Translations under genes and position numbers: made by a program
Shown here: positions 22,106 through 33,531 of the stretch, one piece after another
Layout of the letters: every line of letters starts with the position of its first letter
Position numbering within the stretch: the stretch's first letter is position 1
The notes under the pieces: model-generated
The model's input: only the letters and a program-made list of their open reading frames with translations
The model's database searches: none
Told to the model about the DNA's origin: nothing
Source: a virus
Taxonomy: Duplodnaviria > Heunggongvirae > Uroviricota > Caudoviricetes
Reading direction: 5' to 3' (one strand)
IMG/VR virus record: IMGVR_UViG_2684622669_000020
Length of the DNA stretch: 34,356 nt

Positions 22106-22291
22106 TCAGTTCTGTGATGAACACTGCCGGATGCCGTCAATAATCCGGCAGACCTGCGCCGCCGCGTCAAACAGCTGGCCCGCTCTGTTAATGTCTGTGC
22201 ATCCCACCGGAAGCAACATCACCAGAAACAGGGCCAGAACACAGCGCGCGGCTTTACGTGGCGTTCTGTGTGTCCAGTGCTGACGCGTCAT
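22106..22291 (-). CDS. Small lipoprotein (possible o-spanin-like lysis component)
   Basis: 61 aa with lipobox LLPVGC after a hydrophobic stretch; ATG overlaps the endolysin stop (ATGA). Confidence 0.5.
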   Translation of the reverse strand: MTRQHWTHRTPRKAARCVLALFLVMLLPVGCTDINRAGQLFDAAAQVCRIIDGIRQCSSQN

Positions 22292-22833
22292 ACCGCCACG
22301 CGCTCCTTCAGCCAGCCATAAACAAACGATTCGTTAGCCTCGCGTTTCTCTGCCAGTTCCAGATAGCGGTCACCCTGCGTGCAGTTCAGGGCTGTCAGCA
22401 TCACCCGTTCACCGTCCTGACCGCGATTATTCAGGAAGGCACGCAATGCACTGATGGTACGAGGCCCGATGCGTCCGTCTGCGTCCATATCCGGGTACAG
22501 CCTGCCGCGCAGATTGAACACATTCAGCCAGCGCTGAAGCATTCTGGACGCCACGGTTGGCCCCATATTCACACCGGTATCACACAGCTCTGCGGCAATA
22601 TCAGGGGATAATGCGGCGACCTGGTCAAATCGCGGGCCATACCAGTAATCAGCTTCAAGGATGTCCAGCGCCTGTTCACGGGTTAAATCGCGCATATCGC
22701 CACGGTATCCGTGGGCGCGGGCGACTTTTTCCGTAATGCCCCATTTGGTCGGGCCGCCCTTATCATCCGGGTGATTGACGTAACCGCCTTCTTTGCCCAG
22801 AACTTCATCAAAAATTTCATCTTTTGATTTCAT
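22288..22833 (-). CDS. Endolysin, GH108-type muramidase with peptidoglycan-binding domain
   Basis: N-terminal EGGYVNHPDDKGGPTKWGIT matches the GH108 hallmark as I recall it; no signal peptide or N-terminal TM segment visible. Confidence 0.75.
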   Translation of the reverse strand: MKSKDEIFDEVLGKEGGYVNHPDDKGGPTKWGITEKVARAHGYRGDMRDLTREQALDILEADYWYGPRFDQVAALSPDIAAELCDTGVNMGPTVASRMLQRWLNVFNLRGRLYPDMDADGRIGPRTISALRAFLNNRGQDGERVMLTALNCTQGDRYLELAEKREANESFVYGWLKERVAV

Positions 22834-23980: not shown

Positions 23981-24448
23981 TTAATCAAAAAGCCCCACCT
24001 GGGTGGGGCTTTTCAGCGAAGTCTGTTTTTGTCGTCGGTGTATCAGCTGCCATGCATACCTGTCTGAAATCCCGTAACGGGGACAGAGCAGTGCCAGCGC
24101 CTGCCGGTGTGAGCATCCGTCTTTTACATGCTGCTGTAAATCAGCCATAAAACGGGTGTTACGCAGGGCACGTAACGCATGATCGCAACGGGGAATGTAA
24201 AACGGAGCACCGCCAAGAAAGCGGATCAGTTTGTTGATTTCGTCTTCGGTCAGCACATCATGTAACAGGGCATGGACGCCGCCGGTGCGTTCAGCGTGTG
24301 CGCCGGTTTTACCGCTTAACGTCACGCCACCAAAAGAACGGATTAACCGGGTCAGGGCGGGGAAGCCAATCACGCTAATCAGTTGTTGCACGGAGTCGGG
24401 CAGCAGTGCCTGCGCATCGCGAAGATCTGTTTCACTGAAGGTCTGCAT
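23981..24448 (-). CDS. Mor/C-family transcriptional activator (probable late-gene activator)
   Basis: 155 aa; C-terminal region GGAPFYIPRCDHALRALRNTRF...GISDRYAWQLIHRRQ fits the Mor/C-family DNA-binding region; sits between early genes and the lysis/late block. Confidence 0.75.
   Translation of the reverse strand: MQTFSETDLRDAQALLPDSVQQLISVIGFPALTRLIRSFGGVTLSGKTGAHAERTGGVHALLHDVLTEDEINKLIRFLGGAPFYIPRCDHALRALRNTRFMADLQQHVKDGCSHRQALALLCPRYGISDRYAWQLIHRRQKQTSLKSPTQVGLFD
23992..24013 (-). terminator. Intrinsic terminator overlapping the 3-prime end of the activator gene
   Basis: Minus strand GCCCCACC-ca-GGTGGGGC followed by TTTTTGATTAA; the stem and T-run encode the last residues SPTQVGLFD and the stop. 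Confidence 0.6.
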
Positions 24449-24490
24449 GATGGCGTCTCCGGTAGTAACTTACTGTTATTATAGCCATAC
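24449..24490 (-). promoter_or_regulatory. Candidate promoter for the activator gene (consensus -10, poor -35)
   Basis: Minus-strand TATAAT at 24483-24478, about 29 nt upstream of ATG 24448, with GGAG between; no good TTGACA at the -35 position. Confidence 0.4.
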
Positions 24491-24510
24491 ATGATCGCCT
24501 GTACAGACCA

Positions 24511-24536
24511 CAAAAAAGCCCCTGCAAGGCAGAGGC
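24511..24536 (-). terminator. Intrinsic terminator after the GemA-like gene
   Basis: Minus strand GCCTCTGC-ctt-GCAGGGGC (one G-U pair) followed by TTTTTTG, a few nt after the stop at 24544-24546. Confidence 0.55.
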
Positions 24537-24543
24537 TGATTCT

Positions 24544-24957
24544 TTATTGTTTACGTGCTGCTCTGGCTCGTTTTCTGGCGTCTTTTGTCAGCGCCACCAT
24601 CACCCCGAACAGTTGATCATCTGTCAGCCATTCGATCACATGTTGCTTATACATGTGAGATGCCAGTCCTTCCGCATACGCCCAGGAACGACCGGCATCA
24701 GCCAGCAACGCTTCAATTTTGGATAATACTGATTTTCTGCTCATTGCAACACGGGGGCGGCGACCTTGACCGGCGGGTGCCTTGCGCGGAAATCCCTGTT
24801 CGTGCATGTATTCCCGGATGATGCGCAGTTCATCGAGGTTGCAGCGTGTGGTGCTGGTTTTACCGGTCAGGCGGGCCAGCGTCTGGCGATAAAGGACATC
24901 ATCCCACCCCAGATACGCCTGACCGGTTTTAATGGCTCTGATCATCTTTTTCAGCAT
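24544..24957 (-). CDS. gemA: GemA-like early regulatory protein (Mu gp16 family)
   Basis: Start moved to ATG 24957 (GAGGAT upstream); MLKKMIRAIKTGQAYLGWDDVLYRQTLARLTGKTSTTRCNLDELRIIREYMHEQGF matches the GemA-family pattern as I recall it. Confidence 0.65.
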   Translation of the reverse strand: MLKKMIRAIKTGQAYLGWDDVLYRQTLARLTGKTSTTRCNLDELRIIREYMHEQGFPRKAPAGQGRRPRVAMSRKSVLSKIEALLADAGRSWAYAEGLASHMYKQHVIEWLTDDQLFGVMVALTKDARKRARAARKQ

Positions 24958-25243
24958 GTTTGTTATCCTCAAAACGCACGGTAAAACGTGAAACGCCAAT
25001 CCCTGACAGGAACGCAGCGGCACGGTCAAGAGACAGCCACGTCTTGTAATCGCCACGGCGTTCCTGTAGAAAATAGGACACCCCGGCGCGACGATTCACA
25101 GCAAAGAGGTGATACACACCACCGAACCGCTGCACGACGAACTCATCCACGCCACCGCTTTCAGCCTGTTGCCTGAAAGCTGCCATTCCGATTTGTTCAA
25201 TCTTCATAATGACCAAAACATCACTTTTGGCAGACCAAAACAC
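24929..25243 (-). CDS. Hypothetical protein
   Basis: 104-aa ORF; track start is GTG, first ATG is 25207, neither has a clear SD. Confidence 0.4.
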   Translation of the reverse strand: MFWSAKSDVLVIMKIEQIGMAAFRQQAESGGVDEFVVQRFGGVYHLFAVNRRAGVSYFLQERRGDYKTWLSLDRAAAFLSGIGVSRFTVRFEDNKHAEKDDQSH

Positions 25244-25274
25244 ATGTTTTGGTCTGCGTTTGATTACTGTTCAA

Positions 25275-25460
25275 TCAACCCGCGTAATCGGGGCCGTGTT
25301 CCCATCTGGCATCGAGTATTTCCGTTCCATCTGTCCGGCATGGGTTATCAAGTGCCATTTTTCCGCACTCCCCATACTCGACATCGACAAAATCAGCAAT
25401 ATCATTGTCCGTTGCGTTATCAGGAACGTCGATTTCAACCGTTACGGTGATAGTTTTCAT
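25275..25460 (-). CDS. Hypothetical small acidic protein
   Basis: Start moved to ATG 25460 (MKTITVTVEID...) with GGAG upstream; 61 aa. Confidence 0.45.
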   Translation of the reverse strand: MKTITVTVEIDVPDNATDNDIADFVDVEYGECGKMALDNPCRTDGTEILDARWEHGPDYAG

Positions 25461-25501
25461 CAGGTTGTTACTCCGTGATTCAGAAAATTTCATGCCGGGA
25501 C

Positions 25502-25912
25502 TCAGTATGTGAAATAGACAGTTGCCACACCGTTATAGTGGTCAAACGACACAGCGTTTACCTCATAACTGGCCGGGAGCTTCGAGCCAAGAACGTATCC
25601 GGGCCACGTTTTCCATGGAATTTCTCTGCTCTCACTGTCGCCATATACCGTACATCCCAGTGAGCCTACAGCTTCATAAGAACGCTTACCGCACGTTATG
25701 AACCCCAGATGTTGCTTACTGCCCTTAACAGAAATCGGGAGAGCACTGGCTGATGCGTTAGCAGCGTCCCGCTCCTGTTGGCTTGCGATATTCGCAGAGT
25801 TTGCAGCAGCTACAGCAGCTGTGGTCGCAGCGGTAGATGCCACAATAACTGCTGAAGCCTGCGCCTGTTGGGTAATTGTCAGCAATGCCGCCACAAAAAT
25901 CATTTTCTTCAC
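25502..25912 (-). CDS. Secreted protein with signal peptide (moron-like)
   Basis: GTG start at 25912 with AAGGAGGT 6 nt upstream; N-terminus MKKMIFVAALLTITQQAQA-SA is a typical Sec signal; Ala/Thr-rich linker then a two-Cys C-terminal domain. Confidence 0.65.
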   Translation of the reverse strand: MKKMIFVAALLTITQQAQASAVIVASTAATTAAVAAANSANIASQQERDAANASASALPISVKGSKQHLGFITCGKRSYEAVGSLGCTVYGDSESREIPWKTWPGYVLGSKLPASYEVNAVSFDHYNGVATVYFTY

Positions 25913-25924
25913 CTGGCACCTCCT

Positions 25925-26101
25925 TTACATACCGTGATTTTTCCTGCGGTTTTGCGCCGCGCTGGGCTTTTTGCAACAACTGTGCCCCATAACCCCTAAA
26001 AACCCTGTCAACCTCAACCGTCTGTTACTAATCCTCACCCACCGCCAGACATCAAAGCCGTTTCTGCGAGCTAACAGAATTTTTGCCTTACGGTTTTTCA
26101 T
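25925..26101 (-). CDS. Small basic ORF, paralog 1 (MKNRKAK...)
   Basis: 58 codons; ATG overlaps the upstream stop (ATGA); N- and C-termini shared with the adjacent ORF at 26098-26274. Confidence 0.35.
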   Translation of the reverse strand: MKNRKAKILLARRNGFDVWRWVRISNRRLRLTGFLGVMGHSCCKKPSAAQNRRKNHGM

Positions 26102-26274
26102 CGTACTGCGTACCCTTTATTCCGCCTGTTCTGTGACGCAGTAGGCTTACGCTTTGCGGCAAAAGCCACCTGACCAAATGGATGGAGTACCGCTATCTTA
26201 TGGTTGCTAATAACCAGCTCCACCACACGCACAGGTCGCTGTAAAAGAAGGCGTTTTGCTTTACGGTTTTTCAT
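26098..26274 (-). CDS. Small basic ORF, paralog 2 (MKNRKAK...)
   Basis: 58 codons; ATG at 26274, 1 nt after the upstream stop; same start context GATGAAAAACCGTAA(A/G)GCAAAA as paralog 1. Confidence 0.4.
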   Translation of the reverse strand: MKNRKAKRLLLQRPVRVVELVISNHKIAVLHPFGQVAFAAKRKPTASQNRRNKGYAVR

Positions 26275-26275
26275 C

Positions 26276-26467
26276 TCATCCTTCCTCGCTTTTTGCAGTT
26301 TCAAACCACGCATCCTGCCCCACAACATCATCACCACATGGTGGTTCAGATTCTGAATAGCGACCGGCCCACCAGTATTTACCATTACGATGCTTTGCTG
26401 TGCCGCAACGCTGGCATATGAAAATTGACCCATCACGCTGATAATGATGGATGTGCTCGTTACTCAT
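26276..26467 (-). CDS. Hypothetical small protein with Cys motif
   Basis: 63-aa ORF containing CQRCG and a second Cys pair; start overlaps upstream stop. Confidence 0.45.
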   Translation of the reverse strand: MSNEHIHHYQRDGSIFICQRCGTAKHRNGKYWWAGRYSESEPPCGDDVVGQDAWFETAKSEEG

Positions 26468-26688
26468 TGTGCAGCCTCCTGTTTTGCCACTTTAAACGCC
26501 CGTAACATCGGAACCGTTTTACCGGTGATAACGGTTTTCATTAAAAGGCCGCCGCCACTCTGGTGGCGCACTTCAGGAGCAACAAACAGCGCCGCATCCA
26601 CAACCCGACAATAGCGACGGAACTCCCAGAACCAGCAGGTAACAATGATTTTTGCGGTGACTCCGTAGTCATAAAATTCAATATTCAT
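26464..26688 (-). CDS. Hypothetical small protein
   Basis: 74-aa ORF; ATG overlaps upstream stop (ATGA). Confidence 0.45.
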   Translation of the reverse strand: MNIEFYDYGVTAKIIVTCWFWEFRRYCRVVDAALFVAPEVRHQSGGGLLMKTVITGKTVPMLRAFKVAKQEAAQ

Positions 26689-26912
26689 TTGCAGTTAAAC
26701 CTTCTTTTGTGACGTTCTACAGCGGCTTTCATGGCGTTGTGCACGGTTCTTTTAATAATCCGGCGTCCCGCACTGTCATAGAACCGCCACCGGGAAGCCT
26801 CCGGATATTTAGGGAACTCAACCGCCGCGCTACCGTCATTCATCCTGTATTCGTGGCGTTCTCCGGGCGGCTGGTATATTGCTTCGGTAACACTGAGAAG
26901 TTTAAAAGCCAT
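26685..26912 (-). CDS. Hypothetical small protein
   Basis: 75-aa ORF with GGGGAGGG upstream of ATG 26912, 2 nt after the upstream stop. Confidence 0.5.
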   Translation of the reverse strand: MAFKLLSVTEAIYQPPGERHEYRMNDGSAAVEFPKYPEASRWRFYDSAGRRIIKRTVHNAMKAAVERHKRRFNCK

Positions 26913-26914
26913 CG

Positions 26915-27625
26915 TTACACCCTCCCCAGTGCCAGCGGTCTGTTGCTCTGACCATTAACTCCCTGATGCAGCCTGGCGTTTTTTCCGGCGATAAAACCGG
27001 CAGTAGCGGCAAACTCTGCACCCCGGCACGCTTTAGCCGTACGCATATCCCCGTCGCGCAGTCCTTTAGTGCTGTGCAGATTCTTTCTGTAAAGCTCAAG
27101 GCGGCTTTTTTCTTCCGGGGAGACGTCATACACCGCAATGACATCACGGGCACCAAAGACCCAGCCTTCGCAGAACTGGTCGCCACGGGCCACCCGCGTG
27201 GACGGGCCGCAACGTTTGCAGTGTTTATCCTGATATTTCTTGCGCTCTGCCATCATCTGACGGGAAAGCACATCAAACGCGTAAGCCGCGATTTCCGGGC
27301 GGCTGTCAGAGCCATAAAAACGCACGTGACGTTTGAGTGAACCAGAAGCCCGGTACTCACCGGAGATGTAACACTCGACGCCGAAGGCTTTACAGACCAG
27401 GTCACACAGGATGTGCATATAACGCGGCGGCGTACTGGCATCACTCGGCGCACCCGCGCTGGCAGCTTCCTGAATGTCGAACAATTCAGCGTCGTTTTCG
27501 CTGATGCCATGCTGGCGCATATAAGCCTGGGCTTTTGCAATAGCGTTAGCGGCTTCTTCCGGGCTTGATGTTCCTCTGGCAAGGTGTAACAGCTTTTTAA
27601 TTTTGGCGATGTATTTATCTTTCAT
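26915..27625 (-). CDS. DUF2786-like early protein
   Basis: 236 aa; N-terminus MKDKYIAKIKKLLHLARGTSSPEEAANAIAKAQAYMRQHGI matches the DUF2786-type N-terminal signature as I recall it; Cys-rich C-terminus. Confidence 0.6.
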   Translation of the reverse strand: MKDKYIAKIKKLLHLARGTSSPEEAANAIAKAQAYMRQHGISENDAELFDIQEAASAGAPSDASTPPRYMHILCDLVCKAFGVECYISGEYRASGSLKRHVRFYGSDSRPEIAAYAFDVLSRQMMAERKKYQDKHCKRCGPSTRVARGDQFCEGWVFGARDVIAVYDVSPEEKSRLELYRKNLHSTKGLRDGDMRTAKACRGAEFAATAGFIAGKNARLHQGVNGQSNRPLALGRV

Positions 27626-27638
27626 GGTCGTCTGAACC

Positions 27639-27821
27639 TCAGCATCCTGAATTCTGAATTACGCAACTTCCGGCACGGCCTTCAGGAACGTGGGGAGTTC
27701 GTTCTGGCTGCGGCGCTGGATGATCATCTGCTGTCGATTGAGAACTGGTCGCAAGACGATTAAAACAAACGATTGTCAGATTAATTTCGCGGGAGAATTT
27801 TTTTTGCTTAGCGATATTCAT
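27639..27821 (-). CDS. Possible small ORF in AT-rich spacer
   Basis: 60 codons with GAGGAAG upstream of ATG 27821; low-complexity sequence, so uncertain. Confidence 0.3.
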   Translation of the reverse strand: MNIAKQKKFSREINLTIVCFNRLATSSQSTADDHPAPQPERTPHVPEGRAGSCVIQNSGC

Positions 27822-27875
27822 AAATAAACTTCCTCAGAATCAGGCGCAGACCTGTTTACCTGCGCCATAAAAAAA

Positions 27876-28274
27876 TCAGAAATCAGAATCGAAATCGAAA
27901 ACGTCAGTTAATTCCCGCTTCAGTGAAACGCGCTCAGAATAAAAGCCATTGCTCTCACTGCACCATCTGACGGTCACACAGCCTTTTGATGTACCGAACT
28001 TAAAGAAACTCCATGTCTGATGACCTTCCCCGACATCACATTCTTCTGTAACCACTTCAGCCTCTGTTAGCGGTTCGCCTTGCAGGTCGTCAAGGTTTCC
28101 GACGATGTCCTCAATCCAGACTTTTTCGCAGCAGTCCTGAAAGTGAAAAAACGTAAACACGGTCCCCCATACTCCGCAGGAATAATCACCACGAAAAACA
28201 AGTTCATCGTTTTCATTCTTAAATACTTCTTTAAATGTACGCCCAAGCATTTCATTGATAACGGTAACGCTCAT
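27876..28274 (-). CDS. Acidic hypothetical protein (moron-like)
   Basis: 132 aa, GGAGAA SD; about 26 Asp/Glu versus about 10 Lys/Arg by eye; AT-rich gene flanked by AT-rich spacers with hairpins. Confidence 0.6.
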   Translation of the reverse strand: MSVTVINEMLGRTFKEVFKNENDELVFRGDYSCGVWGTVFTFFHFQDCCEKVWIEDIVGNLDDLQGEPLTEAEVVTEECDVGEGHQTWSFFKFGTSKGCVTVRWCSESNGFYSERVSLKRELTDVFDFDSDF

Positions 28275-28354
28275 TTCTGTTTCTCCAGATTCAGGCGTAA
28301 GCCAGCCCCGACGGGTTTACGCCTGTTTTAAATAACAATTAAAAACAAATTAAA

Positions 28355-28546
28355 TTAATGCGGTGCTTTCAGTGTTTCGACTTTAACGAAATAAGGCTCG
28401 ACATTAATTTCAACCACACAACCACATTTAAAATCTCTGGCAGGTGAAACGGTTTTCACCACACGACCACCACGCAACGCCGGATGTGCAGTGTGCATGA
28501 AGCGAGTCCCTACTGGATACTGCTTATTAAAGTTCTTCGCATTCAT
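28355..28546 (-). CDS. Hypothetical small protein
   Basis: 63-aa ORF with GGAGG upstream of ATG 28546. Confidence 0.5.
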   Translation of the reverse strand: MNAKNFNKQYPVGTRFMHTAHPALRGGRVVKTVSPARDFKCGCVVEINVEPYFVKVETLKAPH

Positions 28547-28760
28547 GGCGTGGCCTCCAGCCCTTCAGGTGAGCGTTAGCGCAGAACTCCGCACGATGTT
28601 CAGCCCAGATGCGGCGCAGGGTGCTACACGGGCTTTGCGCTGCCTTGCGCCACAGTTTTTCTGCCTCGTCATAATCGCCGCGTTGTTCTGCTCTGGACGC
28701 GCCCAGCGAGTACGCCGCGCAACGATTTCCGGCTCTGTACTCTTTGATATCCTGATGCAT
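28527..28760 (-). CDS. Hypothetical small helical protein
   Basis: Track ORF trimmed to ATG 28760 (MHQDIKEYRAG...), 1 nt after the upstream stop; 77 aa; weak resemblance to small TPR-like regulators. Confidence 0.45.
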   Translation of the reverse strand: MHQDIKEYRAGNRCAAYSLGASRAEQRGDYDEAEKLWRKAAQSPCSTLRRIWAEHRAEFCANAHLKGWRPRHECEEL

Positions 28761-28761
28761 G

Positions 28762-29406
28762 TTAAACTCCTGCAATATCCAGCGGGATTGCGCGGTATTC
28801 ATCAGAATCACCGACGCGCTCATACACGCGGATATAGCTTCTGCTGCCAACCACCTGGACGGCTTCACCAATCAGTTTCATGGCGTTATCCCAGCGTTCC
28901 TCCGTAATATCGAGACGACGCAGAGCCAGAACGCGCCCGGTGTTAATGTTGCCTTCCTTGTCCGTGCTGAATGCCTCACTGATGATGGCTTTAATTTCAG
29001 GGCGCGCTCCTTCCGTCCAGTCAGCCAGGCAGTCATCAATCAGTGCCTTCGCGGTCTGAATGCGTTCATCAAGCGCGATACGGTCCTGCATAGCGCGCTG
29101 AATCTTGTAACGCCCGTCAAAGCTGTAAAGCGTGATATTGCCTTTTTTGCCGCCTTTCACAGCGCCGTATTTCTCCGCCGACAGGTCAATAAACGCCTGA
29201 ATATCACCAAACGCACGCAGTTTCAGTTCACGCAGTGAGGCAGAGGCAGCAATCACCATCTCCACAAGCTCACCGACCAGCTGCTCACGGTCGCGGTCAA
29301 TATCTTTGATAAGGCTTTCAGGTGTCATTACGCCACGGGCATCCACCCAGTAACCTTCAGGCGCTTGAGTTTTCGTGTATTGCTTAACTTTATTTTCAGT
29401 CGTCAT
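28762..29406 (-). CDS. Conserved Mu-like early-region protein (possibly DUF3164 family)
   Basis: 214-aa ORF with GAGGTAAT SD upstream of ATG 29406; no similarity to Mu Gam as I recall it. Confidence 0.6.
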   Translation of the reverse strand: MTTENKVKQYTKTQAPEGYWVDARGVMTPESLIKDIDRDREQLVGELVEMVIAASASLRELKLRAFGDIQAFIDLSAEKYGAVKGGKKGNITLYSFDGRYKIQRAMQDRIALDERIQTAKALIDDCLADWTEGARPEIKAIISEAFSTDKEGNINTGRVLALRRLDITEERWDNAMKLIGEAVQVVGSRSYIRVYERVGDSDEYRAIPLDIAGV

Positions 29407-29435
29407 AATTAAATTACCTCAGTAATATTTACAGA

Positions 29436-29672
29436 TTAATTTGTGTTATGTGCGCAAGGCGCAACGTTTTCAGAAAAAAGATTCACGCCGTTATAGTCAT
29501 TTCTGAGCGTTTCCTTGATAACATCATGTAATCTTGTTGCCACCTGAAACTCCTTTTCGGAAGCTCCGTCCTCCGAATAACTCCCCGTGGTCTGGGTTAA
29601 AACACAGCCTTTTTCATCGGTATAGATAATTACTTCTAACTTAACCGCCATGTTTTTCTCCTTTAAAATCAA
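29436..29672 (-). CDS. Hypothetical small protein
   Basis: 78-aa ORF (alternative ATG at 29651) in the early-gene array. Confidence 0.4.
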   Translation of the reverse strand: MILKEKNMAVKLEVIIYTDEKGCVLTQTTGSYSEDGASEKEFQVATRLHDVIKETLRNDYNGVNLFSENVAPCAHNTN

Positions 29673-29832
29673 ATGATTTAAAAATAATTTCGTTCATAAA
29701 ACAGTGAGTTTTTATGATAATGTCGGAAACCTGCTCTCCCGTGACATCAGGCGGCAACTGATACGTCGCGACGGTTTTCTCCGGTTTACCTGGCCTGTCC
29801 AGGCTGAAAGTTAATTCAAGCTCCAGTGACAT
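29641..29832 (-). CDS. Hypothetical small protein
   Basis: 63-aa ORF in the early-gene array. Confidence 0.4.
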   Translation of the reverse strand: MSLELELTFSLDRPGKPEKTVATYQLPPDVTGEQVSDIIIKTHCFMNEIIFKSFDFKGEKHGG

Positions 29833-29842
29833 TTTTCACCTC

Positions 29843-30094
29843 TCAATGCATTTGTGTCTCTTGAGGAATATACGGACATCCCTGTGCCAGTTGTTTCACG
29901 TAGTCATGGTAGATTTGCAGATCAAGCCGTTCATTTCCGTGTTTCTCCTTCAGAACCGTACAAATAGCACCGACAGTCCCCAGAGTTCTTGCTGCTTCTT
30001 CGAGTGTGGCATTGTCGCCATTTTCCACCCGAATAAGGTTATGGCACTGGTTATTACCCAGGTCGGTAAATACTATTGTTAATTTCACGCTCAC
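29843..30094 (-). CDS. Hypothetical small protein
   Basis: 83-aa ORF, GTG start with GAGGAA 8 nt upstream. Confidence 0.45.
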   Translation of the reverse strand: MSVKLTIVFTDLGNNQCHNLIRVENGDNATLEEAARTLGTVGAICTVLKEKHGNERLDLQIYHDYVKQLAQGCPYIPQETQMH

Positions 30095-30109
30095 TTTTAA
30101 TTCCTCGTT

Positions 30110-30349
30110 TTATTGCCATACGACGGTGCAGCCGTCGATACAGGACGTTTTAACCACGCGGCGCAGGCCGCTGAATCTCTGGATGATTTCCGTTACCGGC
30201 CATACAGGACCCCCCACGGGCGGGCAGGCATAAACCACAGGTAAACGGTGATGCTGTCCCGTTACACGGCCACCGGTGGTGTGGATGGCCACACGGGCAC
30301 GGGAACGGACGGCGTTAATGGTCTGCTTGTCCATCGTCTTGTTCTCCAT
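30110..30349 (-). CDS. Hypothetical small protein downstream of B
   Basis: 79-aa ORF; ATG overlaps the B stop (ATGA). Confidence 0.45.
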   Translation of the reverse strand: MENKTMDKQTINAVRSRARVAIHTTGGRVTGQHHRLPVVYACPPVGGPVWPVTEIIQRFSGLRRVVKTSCIDGCTVVWQ

Positions 30350-31242
30350 CAGTGAATTAACATTTCTGCGAAATCATCAATAGCCTGCACACTGACCGGC
30401 GCATCGCTGATATCACAAATCCGGTAGACCCCACGCACAAGTTTAAACAGGCGTCGGGCATTGCCCCGTGAGCGTGTGTAAAGTGCTTCACAGATTTCAG
30501 GCGCTGCTGCTTCCGGCATCAGTTCGGCGGCTATCTGGATGAAATCCTTCTGCGCCAGCGTATCGCCGAGGTCCAGCGAAAGAGCCACCCGACTGTATAG
30601 CTGCGCGAACTCCCCACGATTGCCTTTAAGATTAATCAACAGGCGCGGCATACCAGCCAGGGCAACACCGACGCCCGCCTTGTCATGCAGACGACGCAGA
30701 ACTTCCAGCGCACGATAGGGGAGCAGTTCGGCTTCATCCACCATCAGCAGGCGACCGGAGTCACGCAATTCGTGTACGCAGGCATTAATCAGTTCGTGAA
30801 TATTGCCGCGAACCTTTACCCCCAACTGGCGGCACAGTTCCTCCAGCAGTGTCCTGGCTGTATAGCCCGGGTCAGCCTCAATCAGTATTGCGTCCCGGTT
30901 TCTGGCGGCGTATTCGCGCAAAATCATTGTTTTGCCAAGACCTGCCGCGCCATACAACACGCTAATTTCACACTCCAGATGAGCATAGGCCAGCGCCTCC
31001 AGCCCTTTGGCGGCCATACCTGTAGTCACAAAACTTGCTTTTACACGCCGGTTGTTTTCTTTTTCCCGTTCACGGCTGACAAAGGCAGAAATTCGCTCTT
31101 CGATATCAGTGATATCGCCCTGATATTTACCCTGCAAATACTGGTTGATAACGGCGCTGCTACGACCAATAGCACGGGCAACGTGGGTCTGCGTATAGCC
31201 GCGACGGGCCATTACGTCATTTAATTGCGTAATTAAACTCAT
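30349..31242 (-). CDS. B: Transposition ATPase B (MuB-like)
   Basis: 297 aa; N-terminal HTH then Walker A GAAGLGKT and D-E motif MVDEAE; directly downstream of the transposase. Confidence 0.85.
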   Translation of the reverse strand: MSLITQLNDVMARRGYTQTHVARAIGRSSAVINQYLQGKYQGDITDIEERISAFVSREREKENNRRVKASFVTTGMAAKGLEALAYAHLECEISVLYGAAGLGKTMILREYAARNRDAILIEADPGYTARTLLEELCRQLGVKVRGNIHELINACVHELRDSGRLLMVDEAELLPYRALEVLRRLHDKAGVGVALAGMPRLLINLKGNRGEFAQLYSRVALSLDLGDTLAQKDFIQIAAELMPEAAAPEICEALYTRSRGNARRLFKLVRGVYRICDISDAPVSVQAIDDFAEMLIH

Positions 31243-31259: not shown

Positions 31260-33335
31260 TTAACGGTTGTTTGTGCCGTCTTTCTTTAAATTGCGGTCAC
31301 GCTCGGATGCAAAGAAATAAAGTTCTTCTTTTTTCTTTTCCTCCTTACGCTCCAGACCAAATCCAAAATTAAAGTCAGGTCTCTGCGTAATAGCCGGGGT
31401 AAGCTCGCGTTTAGCCTCTTCGATTTTCTGCGTGGCCCGTGCAATGCGGCCTCTGGCGCGTTTCTCCTGCTGCTGTTCGATAACAGCTTTCGGGAACGCA
31501 TCAACCTTATTACCGTTCCAGATGGCATCGCAGATATAAGAACCGTCCATCCGCCTGACAATCACGCTGTTTGCGTCGTGAATGTCGTAACAAACCCTGA
31601 CTTCATTTCCGTGCTCTGCTGCCAGTTCTGTGGAGAAATAGATGTTTCTGAATAACACCACTTCACCGCGTCGCACCGTGCAGATGCTTTCCGGTCGGAA
31701 CATTTCATGCAGTTCTTCCGGCGACAGCATGTCGATTTCAGCCTTTTGCTCTTTTATCAGTTTCCGGCGATACGCTGCCGGGCTGTAATGTTCGCCATCC
31801 TCTTTGCGGGGAAGGCTGCTGTGTGGCCGGTTGTTATACCGTTTCACCTCCAGCTCTATTGCGGCCATCAGTTGCTCAAAAGTGGGGACTTCTCCCATCG
31901 CTTTAACCTGCCGCTTTGTCAGCTCTTTCCCTTTGTGGGTGGCCTTAATGGCTGACTGTGTGATGCGTTGCTGCATCATCACCGTTTCCTTGTCTGCATT
32001 TTTTGAGCAGTACGTCTGGAAACTCAGGGCCACATCTTTGGGTATTCCTTTGTTTGCCCGTTCTATTACCCCGCGCCCCTGCGGGTTACCAGGTATCCCC
32101 GTGTGATGCTCCACACCCAGCCGGGGCAGAATCCCGGTAATATCGGCATCAAGCACCCGGTTTTTTTCACCGCCCCCGTTATCGGAGTAATAAATCAGCG
32201 GTATTCCGTGTTGTGACATGCCATGACGCAATGCATCAGCAACGGCTATCACGTTCTCCGACAGGGACAGCGACCAGCCCACAATAAAGCGTTGCCCCGC
32301 ATCCATAACCAGCGTCACTTCTGGCCGGAATGTATTCCCGGTGGCAGGGTTGAATGCCATCAGTTTCATACAGTGACCATCCCCGACCCATACCGCATTA
32401 ACCGGTAATGTGCTCCAGTCGCGCCGCACAAAGGGATTGAGCGAACGCCAGGCTGAGCCGGTGGAGCGGAAACGCTCCTTAACAATCACCGGGACGTTGC
32501 TTAACACCCGTCTTACTGCGTGAACTGAAGGCAGTGCTGCCAGCATTCCCGCATCGTTCGCGTGTTTTTCATGCCACCAGGCTGAAAACTCGCGATACGC
32601 ATATTCAACGGTCGGGCGCTTCCATGAGCGATAGAACATAAAGAAATCGCTCAACCACCAGACCTGCTCCCACGGTGTTCCCTTATGATGACCGGGAGCC
32701 AGTAACGCCAGTAACTGATTGGCATCACCGCGCGCCATCAGCCAGGCGGAATACCATTCCTGTAAACTCCCTGTACTGACGCCAGTTCGCTTACCCTGTC
32801 GGGCATTGGCGGTATTACCGGCCACAATAACGCGCTCGGGCAAAGCCCCCTGGCGGATACCATCAACGATGTGTTTTATCGCTGCTGTCCTGGACATTCC
32901 TGCGTATTCACGCAGTTTATGCACTTCGGTAGCCAGCAATATCCGCGCATCAGCGATGGCCTTTTGCTTGTCGGTCAGTGCCTGAACTTCGCGTAATGCC
33001 AGTTCCGGGCATTTGACCATCACTTCCAGTTCATCGCGAATGGTGACGTTCTTAACTGCCTTCTGCTCAACCACGGCGGGCAGTTGCGCATCTTCCAGAA
33101 CCTGATGGGTCAGGCGTTGACGTAAAACCTTCTGAACATCTTTAGGTAAACTGGATATATGGTACTCATATATTTTCCCCTGAACTCCAGACTTCCTTCT
33201 TCTTGTCCAGTTCGCTCGTTTAGCTTTTTGAGTGATCCCCTGTACAGTTTTCGGTAGCCCTTGAAGCCCTGTTAGTTCATTCAACGTAAACCATTCAGGT
33301 TCGAACTTGACTTCATAGTCGTTGTTCTTATTCAT
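31260..33335 (-). CDS. A: DDE transposase (MuA-like)
   Basis: 691 aa; N-terminal domain resembles the repressor N-terminus (LxGLxGLPxTxQGIxQKAKRxxW); central integrase-like catalytic region; followed by B. Confidence 0.9.
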   Translation of the reverse strand: MNKNNDYEVKFEPEWFTLNELTGLQGLPKTVQGITQKAKRANWTRRRKSGVQGKIYEYHISSLPKDVQKVLRQRLTHQVLEDAQLPAVVEQKAVKNVTIRDELEVMVKCPELALREVQALTDKQKAIADARILLATEVHKLREYAGMSRTAAIKHIVDGIRQGALPERVIVAGNTANARQGKRTGVSTGSLQEWYSAWLMARGDANQLLALLAPGHHKGTPWEQVWWLSDFFMFYRSWKRPTVEYAYREFSAWWHEKHANDAGMLAALPSVHAVRRVLSNVPVIVKERFRSTGSAWRSLNPFVRRDWSTLPVNAVWVGDGHCMKLMAFNPATGNTFRPEVTLVMDAGQRFIVGWSLSLSENVIAVADALRHGMSQHGIPLIYYSDNGGGEKNRVLDADITGILPRLGVEHHTGIPGNPQGRGVIERANKGIPKDVALSFQTYCSKNADKETVMMQQRITQSAIKATHKGKELTKRQVKAMGEVPTFEQLMAAIELEVKRYNNRPHSSLPRKEDGEHYSPAAYRRKLIKEQKAEIDMLSPEELHEMFRPESICTVRRGEVVLFRNIYFSTELAAEHGNEVRVCYDIHDANSVIVRRMDGSYICDAIWNGNKVDAFPKAVIEQQQEKRARGRIARATQKIEEAKRELTPAITQRPDFNFGFGLERKEEKKKEELYFFASERDRNLKKDGTNNR

Positions 33336-33531
33336 AACGTGATGGCCAAATTTCTTCTGGCTTTTTACCGATCACACTAGCGACAATCATTTCTGCTTTG
33401 GGCCATTTTGTACGTAGAACATTACCCAAACTTCTTGATTTCATTCCATGCTCTCGTGAAAGCCGACTAAAGTTTGTTCCTTTCTTTTCTAGTTCCGCCT
33501 TGATATCTGACGGATGCATATCTTGTCTCAC
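33328..33531 (-). CDS. ner: Ner-like DNA-binding protein
   Basis: 67 aa; C-terminal KWPKAEMIVASVIGKKPEEIWPSRYE closely matches the Mu Ner C-terminus; GTG start with GAGGTAGAG upstream (alternative ATG at 33519); overlaps the transposase start. Confidence 0.8.
   Translation of the reverse strand: MRQDMHPSDIKAELEKKGTNFSRLSREHGMKSRSLGNVLRTKWPKAEMIVASVIGKKPEEIWPSRYE

Follow-up and report, generated by a model that had tools for sequence, protein, structure and literature searches.

The gene array between B and mor

The virus record IMGVR_UViG_2684622669_000020, a stretch of 34,356 nucleotides (nt) to which we refer as the window, is a minus-strand Mu-like prophage, and its genes are listed here from the high-coordinate end. 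The subject of this analysis is a dense array of small genes at 24929-30349, placed as in Mu between B and mor and on the same strand as A and B. The repressor, Ner, the A-position open reading frame (ORF), B, the array, GemA, Mor and the lysis genes follow each other in an order that matches the Mu map, and the window also encodes two holins, a GH108 endolysin and DUF1804. The genes framing the array, with lengths in amino acids (aa), are the following.

33778 to the window end, plus strand: c-type repressor with a Mu DNA-binding domain
33328-33531: Ner-type helix-turn-helix protein
31260-33335: 691-aa ORF in the A (transposase) position
30349-31242, minus strand: B-type AAA ATPase (B)
24929-30349, minus strand: the array
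24544-24957, minus strand: gemA, 137 aa, distal in the early operon (PF06252, E 6.5e-18; phmmer against Mu GemA, E 5e-6)
23981-24448, minus strand: mor

The 691-aa ORF was placed by its position and by the name of its orthologue in relatives; that name, given by the Prokaryotic Genome Annotation Pipeline (PGAP), is Mu transposase C-terminal domain protein.

An earlier note, made from the letters of the window, had described about 20 ORFs in this region, mostly under 100 codons and with overlapping stops and starts. The dense packing was borne out, on the minus strand only and from B to gemA, while the count was reduced to 17 credible genes, 13 of which are below 100 codons. Overlaps of 4-29 nt occur at six junctions (seven if the start of kil is taken at 30349), four further junctions have gaps of 2 nt or less, and the coding density of the array is approximately 90%. 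The gene models use starts supported by a ribosome-binding site (RBS) and were checked against PGAP calls in E. coli prophages of 95-97% identity. The synteny comparison proposed in the earlier note was made with 160 IMG/VR Mu-like loci (80 seeded on DUF3164 and 80 of the Gam type) and four E. coli prophages, and it separated a backbone, consisting of kil, DUF3164, ANR, g07, DUF2786, g11 and gemA, from three variable cassettes. In the list below, counts out of 80 refer to the DUF3164-seeded loci, and pI is the isoelectric point.

g01, 30110-30334, minus: Kil family, 74 aa, basic, pI 10.8 (phrog_2679, similarity to Mu Kil, and position)
g02, 29843-30094, minus: 83 aa, cassette 1 (phrog_35084, E 2.8e-60; 1/80 loci; absent from L005)
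g03, 29641-29832, minus: 63 aa, cassette 1 (phrog_38867, E 2.2e-48; 2/80 loci)
g04, 29436-29651, minus: 71 aa, acidic, cassette 1 (phrog_7438, E 6.5e-51; 11-nt overlap with g03)
g05, 28762-29406, minus: DUF3164, 214 aa, backbone gene in the Gam slot (PF11363, E 4.6e-79)
g06, 28527-28760, minus: ANR-family (AraC negative regulator) small protein, 77 aa, backbone (NF033650)
g07, 28355-28546, minus: 63 aa, basic, backbone (phrog_5591, E 3.5e-40; 20-nt overlap with g06)
g08, 27876-28274, minus: DUF7448, 132 aa, net charge -15, pI 4.3, cassette 2 (PF24240, E 3.3e-19)
g10, 26915-27625, minus: DUF2786 plus DUF7168, 236 aa, basic, backbone (PF10979, E 1.3e-12, residues 4-43; PF23771, E 3.7e-29, residues 60-187)
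g11, 26685-26912, minus: 75 aa, basic, backbone (phrog_9400, E 2.5e-39; 42/80 loci; codon-position bias 3/18/32)
g12, 26464-26688, minus: 74 aa, edge of cassette 3 (phrog_1001, E 2.6e-36; 5/80 loci)
g13, 26276-26467, minus: 63 aa, CxxC and a third downstream Cys, cassette 3 (phrog_7369, E 1e-42)
g14, 26098-26274, minus: 58 aa, pI 12 (phrog_1380, E 1.9e-21, residues 55-112 of the long ORF; RBS before ATG 26274)
g15, 25925-26101, minus: 58 aa, pI 12 (phrog_1380, E 3.4e-27)
g16, 25502-25912, minus: 136 aa, signal peptide (…AQA/SA), Ala-rich linker, cassette 3 (phrog_8805, E 5.4e-83)
g17, 25275-25460, minus: 61 aa, net charge -11, pI 4.1, cassette 3 (phrog_8773, E 8.1e-47)
g18, 24929-25207, minus: 92 aa (phrog_7844, E 1.7e-69; 29-nt overlap with gemA)

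Small ORFs of this kind might mostly have arisen by chance or be left from the decay of a defective prophage, and one of those listed earlier did fail as a gene. ORF 27639-27821 has no family match, is never called by PGAP, shows no third-position bias (18/10/14 substitutions at the first, second and third codon positions) and carries 11 synonymous versus 29 non-synonymous changes; because it is non-coding, the count of about 20 falls to 17. PGAP also omits g11, and sometimes g03, in the relatives. However, all 17 remaining genes match existing PHROG families (E 2e-21 to 3e-91), and substitutions compared with relatives are in excess at the third codon position (kil 3/8/50, DUF3164 46/34/272, DUF2786 16/21/193, g18 14/10/56). 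The array genes thus stand above chance ORFs by their family matches and their substitution bias. In addition, no stops appear in the relatives, a plausible RBS precedes each start, the genes are tightly packed on one strand, and the prophage retains the 691-aa A-position ORF, B, and lysis genes with intact domains. We therefore consider an origin by chance or decay very improbable.

Another candidate in the same place, the plus-strand ORF 27690-27827, was likewise rejected by its pattern of substitutions; PGAP calls it in two relatives, and it gains stop codons in others. In all four close E. coli relatives the stretch corresponding to g11 (L001 5530-5755) has no PGAP annotation, which is probably a missed gene call.

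By their PHROG matches, the array ORFs belong to families that are already catalogued, and are not unseen sequence. Most of these families have no known function, and this applies to at least 12 of the array genes. The earlier note expected the unassigned ORFs to be good candidates for new functions, which is reasonable as an expectation; the PADLOC defence models matched none of the ten least characterised array proteins. Of the assignments, only those of DUF3164-, DUF2786- and GemA-like proteins had been made in the earlier note. Pfam confirmed these three, with the E-values listed above, and Kil, ANR, DUF7448 and DUF7168 could be assigned as well.

In Mu, the region of semi-essential early (SEE) genes (Mup05-Mup16: kil, gp6-gp9, gam, gp11-gp15 and gemA) likewise extends from B to mor as small packed genes on one strand, with kil after B and gemA and mor distal, as here. 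When the 21 window proteins were compared directly with the 14 Mu early proteins Mup05-Mup18 by BLASTP and phmmer, only Kil, GemA and Mor were detectably homologous, and the other array genes had no Mu counterpart; the ORFs are therefore far from being a set of known Mu early proteins, which the earlier note had named as the outcome that would speak against its proposal. There are 17 genes here versus 11 in Mu, Mu gp6-gp9 and gp11-gp15 have no counterpart, and where Mu has gam the array has DUF3164. Of the set kil, gam and gemA, the array thus has the first and the last; Mu-like phages lacking part of this set have also been published (PMC4553209, PMC5488378).

Closer likeness was found in RefSeq E. 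coli prophages (B1172, F163, UMNF18 and STEC346), which are 95-97% identical in DNA over 83-96% of the region. They share the backbone and its PGAP names (DUF3164, ANR family, DUF7448, DUF2786 and GemA/gp16) but differ in the cassettes, where other genes replace g02, g08 or g13-g17, and no record matched the window over its full length. In Pseudomonas Casadabanvirus phages (D3112-like, e.g., LPB1) and in those Mu-like phages of Burkholderia, Ralstonia and Vibrio that encode DUF3164, the succession is the same: A and B are followed by small genes, then by DUF3164, further small genes, GemA and Mor, and Gam is lacking. Their DUF3164 is 35-65% identical to g05, whereas their small genes are unrelated. 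Elements of this architecture are known, and near-identical arrays have already been annotated in RefSeq. Among 133 other Mu-like loci the median number of genes from B to gemA is 8-9 and the maximum 18, and the 17-gene array stands at the long end of this range. Taking these results together, we regard 24929-30349, with considerable confidence, as the SEE (accessory) operon of an E. coli prophage that is transposable, Mu-like and of the DUF3164 type, and that lacks Gam. The gene model of this block is now defined, with 17 genes and one listed ORF dropped, and the split into backbone and cassettes distinguishes lineage-wide genes from strain-specific additions.

DUF3164 in the Gam slot

The earlier note had seen nothing that resembled Mu Gam, and this was confirmed by all searches. 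Pfam gave no match to PF07352 at E ≤0.1 in the 21 ORFs of the early region through Mor, and a Gam hidden Markov model (HMM) built from 53 distinct sequences gave E 0.72 at best when the whole window was searched in six-frame translation. The product of g05, which matches PF11363 over its full length (model positions 1-193 of 194), showed no similarity to Mu Gam by BLASTP. Alignment of DUF3164 and Gam profiles with hhalign gave a probability of 0.3%, which became 0.2% when the DUF3164 profile was made deeper by using the representatives at 50% clustering (effective number of sequences, Neff, 4.5), the Gam profile being shallow (Neff 2.6). The AlphaFold2 model of g05 (predicted local distance difference test score, pLDDT, 81) had no fold match in PDB or, in a Foldseek search that gave nothing significant, among the predicted viral structures of BFVD, and a Ku-like fold was not found in DUF3164. 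Searches of PDB with the DUF3164 and DUF2786 sequences returned noise only (E ≥0.23). The DUF3164 family comprises 1675 representatives at 50% clustering, nearly all of them stand-alone proteins of approximately 205-215 aa, and no domain fusion was present among the best 150 representatives. The papers found to mention DUF3164 or DUF2786 assign no function to them. Five matching Pseudomonas records name the feature DUF3164/PF11363 or, in one case, 'kilA anti-repressor protein', and the other matching records give "hypothetical protein"; neither the LPB1 annotation nor the named Pseudomonas records give a tested function for it.

DUF3164 and Gam excluded each other among the fetched loci: 84 had DUF3164 and none of these had Gam, and 81 had Gam and none of these had DUF3164. 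Both genes start at a median of approximately 0.5-1.3 kb past the end of B. B proteins of some DUF3164-type phages are 72-73% identical to those of Gam-type phages (that of the window reaches only about 32% with any Gam-type B), indicating that the split does not simply track the backbone. In the locus pairs L087/L148 and L076/L167 the flanking genes are homologous (33-73% identity) and only DUF3164 versus Gam differs, and over all loci four families occur directly upstream of both genes and three directly downstream of both. Exclusivity at the same slot, with no similarity of sequence or fold detected, supports a non-homologous displacement, and the comparison of sequences thus points to DUF3164 as a positional, mutually exclusive replacement of Gam.

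The evidence for displacement at one slot is good, but it does not extend to biochemistry, and a function common to the two proteins is only what we would infer from this position. DUF3164 would then be a functional replacement for Mu Gam with an unrelated fold, which keeps the linear phage DNA and its host flanks protected or puts nucleases of the RecBCD type out of action, and it would plausibly cover the need met by Gam in Mu. We hold this only as a tentative and rather doubtful possibility. That DUF3164 is unrelated to the role of Gam comes close to being probable, without quite reaching it; the protein would be an accessory factor in another early process (transposition or replication) or a regulator, and the lineage would need no RecBCD or end-protection function or would get it from a virion protein.

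Several observations weigh against the functional replacement or favour a role unrelated to Gam. DUF3164 resembles neither Gam nor Ku nor any solved structure in sequence or fold, and it is mildly acidic (pI 5.2). The exclusivity was counted in sets seeded on both genes, with flanks of up to 8 kb, and is not an unbiased census. The backbone gene order is not rigid but varies among phages, and slot sharing is weaker evidence in such a shuffled order than it would be in a rigid operon; DUF3164 may share the Gam slot owing to module shuffling rather than to a shared function. Roseophages without Gam also encode DUF3164, and its product was detected in their virion proteome (PMC5488378), where one would not expect an early protein that stays purely inside the cell. 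In contrast, a role unrelated to Gam fits poorly with the strict mutual exclusivity over 165 loci and with the exchange at the same slot between homologous flanks, with B proteins as similar as described above. It also fits poorly with the finding that, in phages without Gam, no other gene of the block is as conserved as DUF3164 (80/80 loci, by seeding) and with its presence in 209 deposited phage records.

These 209 records are from phages of Pseudomonas, Ralstonia, Burkholderia and Vibrio, and none is from an Escherichia phage; the best match among deposited phages, at 65% identity, is to Burkholderia phages. Of 5,426 complete E. coli genomes, 58 contain the DUF3164 gene of the present lineage and 90 contain Mu gam, and the E. 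coli DUF3164 lineage seems to be known as prophage only.

An anti-RecBCD function might instead be provided by a small acidic DNA mimic. T7 gp5.9 and lambda Gam are inhibitors of this type, and g17 (61 aa, -11) and g08/DUF7448 (132 aa, -15) have the appropriate charge and size. However, each of the two was present in 1/80 loci, both are absent from some 95%-identical relatives, and no family match ties them to known inhibitors. Since they are rare and lie in variable cassettes, neither can be the general solution of the lineage to the lack of Gam, and we consider this explanation improbable.

If DUF3164 does replace Gam in function, its role would span the large group of Gam-less transposable phages, which includes the D3112/B3-like Pseudomonas phages, Mu-like phages of Burkholderia, Ralstonia and Vibrio, and this E. 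coli lineage. Nuclease inhibition or end protection by a new fold would explain how Mu-like phages without Gam exist, including the Pseudomonas model phages, and DUF3164 would be added to the tools for marking or protecting double-strand ends, as Mu Gam already is. With approximately 1,700 cluster representatives, no assigned function and a place in the Gam slot, DUF3164 makes the displacement a lead worth following.

Kil, ANR and the other backbone genes

The earlier note also stated that no Kil was recognisable, and here it has to be corrected. The g01 product matched phrog_2679 ("Kil protein") at E 2.2e-37 and, at E 0.008, phrog_2743, which is likewise annotated as Kil. BLASTP aligned it with the C-terminal 25 aa of Mu Kil, with 36% identity (pairwise E 1e-5; phmmer E 5e-5). 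A jackhmmer search from g01 retrieved ORFs in 38 DUF3164-type and 53 Gam-type loci, 15 of which are exactly Mu Kil, and the retrieved ORFs start at a median of 13-14 nt after B. In accordance with that, g01, which with 74 aa also has the size of Mu Kil (about 74 aa), starts 14 nt past the B stop, and kil directly follows B in Mu too; an alternative ATG at 30349 would give 79 aa and a 1-nt overlap with the B stop. Sequence, size and position therefore agree that g01 is a member of the Kil family. Mu Kil kills or deforms the host cell, and by analogy g01 may interfere with host cell growth or shape. Two points weigh against carrying the analogy far: the similarity to Mu Kil is weak and limited to the C-terminal third, and the Kil subfamily of g01 has no phenotype on record.

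Backbone genes were found in the DUF3164-seeded loci at different frequencies: B in 73 of the 80, kil in 39, DUF3164 in 80 (by seeding), ANR in 43, g07 in 55, DUF2786 in 43, g11 in 42, gemA in 75 and mor in 71. The most widely kept of the small ones is thus g07.

The g06 product passed the NF033650 model (ANR_neg_reg) with 57.1 bits (E 1.2e-15) against the curated NCBIfam cut-off of 32 bits, and it has the size of this family, the archetype of which is Aar of enteroaggregative E. coli. It also matched phrog_2227 (E 1.8e-27, from residue 38 of the long ORF), and PGAP names its orthologue "ANR family transcriptional regulator". The gene occurs in 43/80 DUF3164-type loci and 0/80 Gam-type loci. 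ANR proteins usually accompany the gene of an AraC-type activator, although this context is not strictly defining, and T7 gp5.5, a phage-encoded H-NS antagonist, is a functional analogue of them. Unlike Aar, g06 sits in a phage early operon, and no AraC/XylS domain was found among the scanned proteins of 21.4-34.4 kb, a scan that did not include the 691-aa A ORF or the late region; this weighs against a typical ANR role for g06. The characterised members Aar and Rnr bind AraC/XylS activators and H-NS, and characterised ANR proteins, Aar among them, lack a DNA-binding domain and act through protein-protein binding (PMC5570504, PMC10148876). By the same route, g06 would plausibly titrate H-NS or an AraC-type host regulator, and as a secondary possibility it could be a phage-borne H-NS antagonist.

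Among the remaining genes, that for DUF2786 also occurs in some Gam-type phages. In all four close E. coli relatives g18 is kept at 95-98% identity, and its alternative GTG start at 25243 would give 104 aa. The gap before g18 holds, at 25211-25257, a near-perfect palindrome with a 12-bp stem (GCAGACCAAAAC-ACAT-GTTTTGGTCTGC), which overlaps this GTG. As for the distal end of the backbone, Mu GemA modulates host gene expression.

Variable cassettes, transcription signals and lysis genes

Three zones vary even among 95%-identical prophages: g02-g04 between kil and DUF3164, g08 with the adjacent spacer between g07 and DUF2786, and g12-g17 between g11 and g18. In the relatives, these zones are filled by a 181-aa protein, DUF4752, an ead/Ea22-like protein and several short ORFs.

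In the first zone, the phrog_7438 match of g04 covers residues 8-78 of a longer ORF, and the RBS AAAGGAG precedes the ATG at 29651. The alleles of g04 are strongly diverged, with 51%, 99%, 85% and 44% protein identity, while the neighbouring genes are 96-100% identical; g04 is either a locally hypervariable or a replaced gene. The N-termini of g02, g03 and g04 look alike by eye, and paralogy of these genes with one another or with Mu gp7 was rejected when phmmer --max gave no match at E <0.05. In the second zone, g08 is absent from the relatives L003 and L004.

In the third zone, g13 gave sub-threshold zinc-finger matches and is present in one of the four close relatives. The tandem genes g14 and g15 are paralogues (phmmer E 1e-7). 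The DNA at 25934-26275, which holds them, is 88-96% identical to that of P1-like plasmids, P1, RCS47, Stx2c phages, TL-2011b/c and phiV10, and in those phages it lies among accessory genes of the ea type; g15 is a mobile accessory gene shared with P1-like plasmids and lambdoid or Stx phages. This identity and setting suggest that temperate phages of unrelated kinds have recently exchanged these genes with the prophage. In E. coli genomes 511 places match, 251 of them on plasmids, and short matches of the g14/g15 type probably explain this share. The hydrophobic N-terminus of g16 and its signal peptide predict an exported protein, whose relatives occur in only 5 phage records. For g17, the phrog_8773 match comprises residues 12-71 of the long ORF. 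Judged by their properties, g16 (exported), g08 and g17 (acidic) and g14 and g15 (basic) would be the most obvious candidates for exclusion or host interaction.

Two non-coding elements accompany the array.

27626-27875 (250 nt), minus strand: conserved non-coding spacer; 8-bp hairpin at 27843-27866; codon positions unbiased on both strands
24517-24537, minus strand: intrinsic-terminator-like hairpin with a T-run, 7 nt past the gemA stop, found by pattern scan

The spacer, within which the rejected ORF 27639-27821 lies, has no family matches and was found in nine close relatives only, at 95-99% identity. Its first 59 nt recur with 86-88% identity behind another cassette gene in three relatives (L001 7284-7341, L005 6025-6082 and L011 8629-8686). 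This sequence upstream of the DUF2786 gene may be a boundary for cassette exchange. Beyond the g14/g15 duplication and one palindrome there are no repeats within the region, and an Rfam scan of 23.5-31 kb gave one sub-threshold match only.

In the strong hairpin past gemA the stem is 9 bp long, 6 of its pairs are GC, and TTTTTTGTGG comes after it. The pattern scan found no better terminator candidate inside the array, and this hairpin is probably the end of the early transcript. A promoter-like sequence, TGTACA-16-TATAAT, lies on the minus strand at 24478-24505, just upstream of mor. In the Mu annotation gemA and mor overlap without a gap, whereas here the hairpin and the promoter-like site lie between them, and the two sites suggest that mor is separate from the early transcript. 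The array would be the distal part of a single long early transcript, which would run from upstream of ner through A and B and end at the hairpin with its T-run, and the short genes may be translationally coupled via their overlapping or abutting stops and starts. The single transcript and the coupling, like all biochemical roles discussed here, are what we infer. The operon structure was read from strand, spacing and consensus scans only, and promoter-like and terminator-like sequences are no more numerous in the region than in shuffled sequence; both points weigh against it.

The lysis genes also differ between relatives. The endolysin at 22288-22833 consists of GH108 plus PG_binding_3, whereas in B1172, a relative of 95% identity, an M15 metallopeptidase (L001 703-1080) takes this slot, which lies between the holins and DUF1804. 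By comparison of the two regions, this is a lysis-cassette swap among otherwise near-identical prophages.

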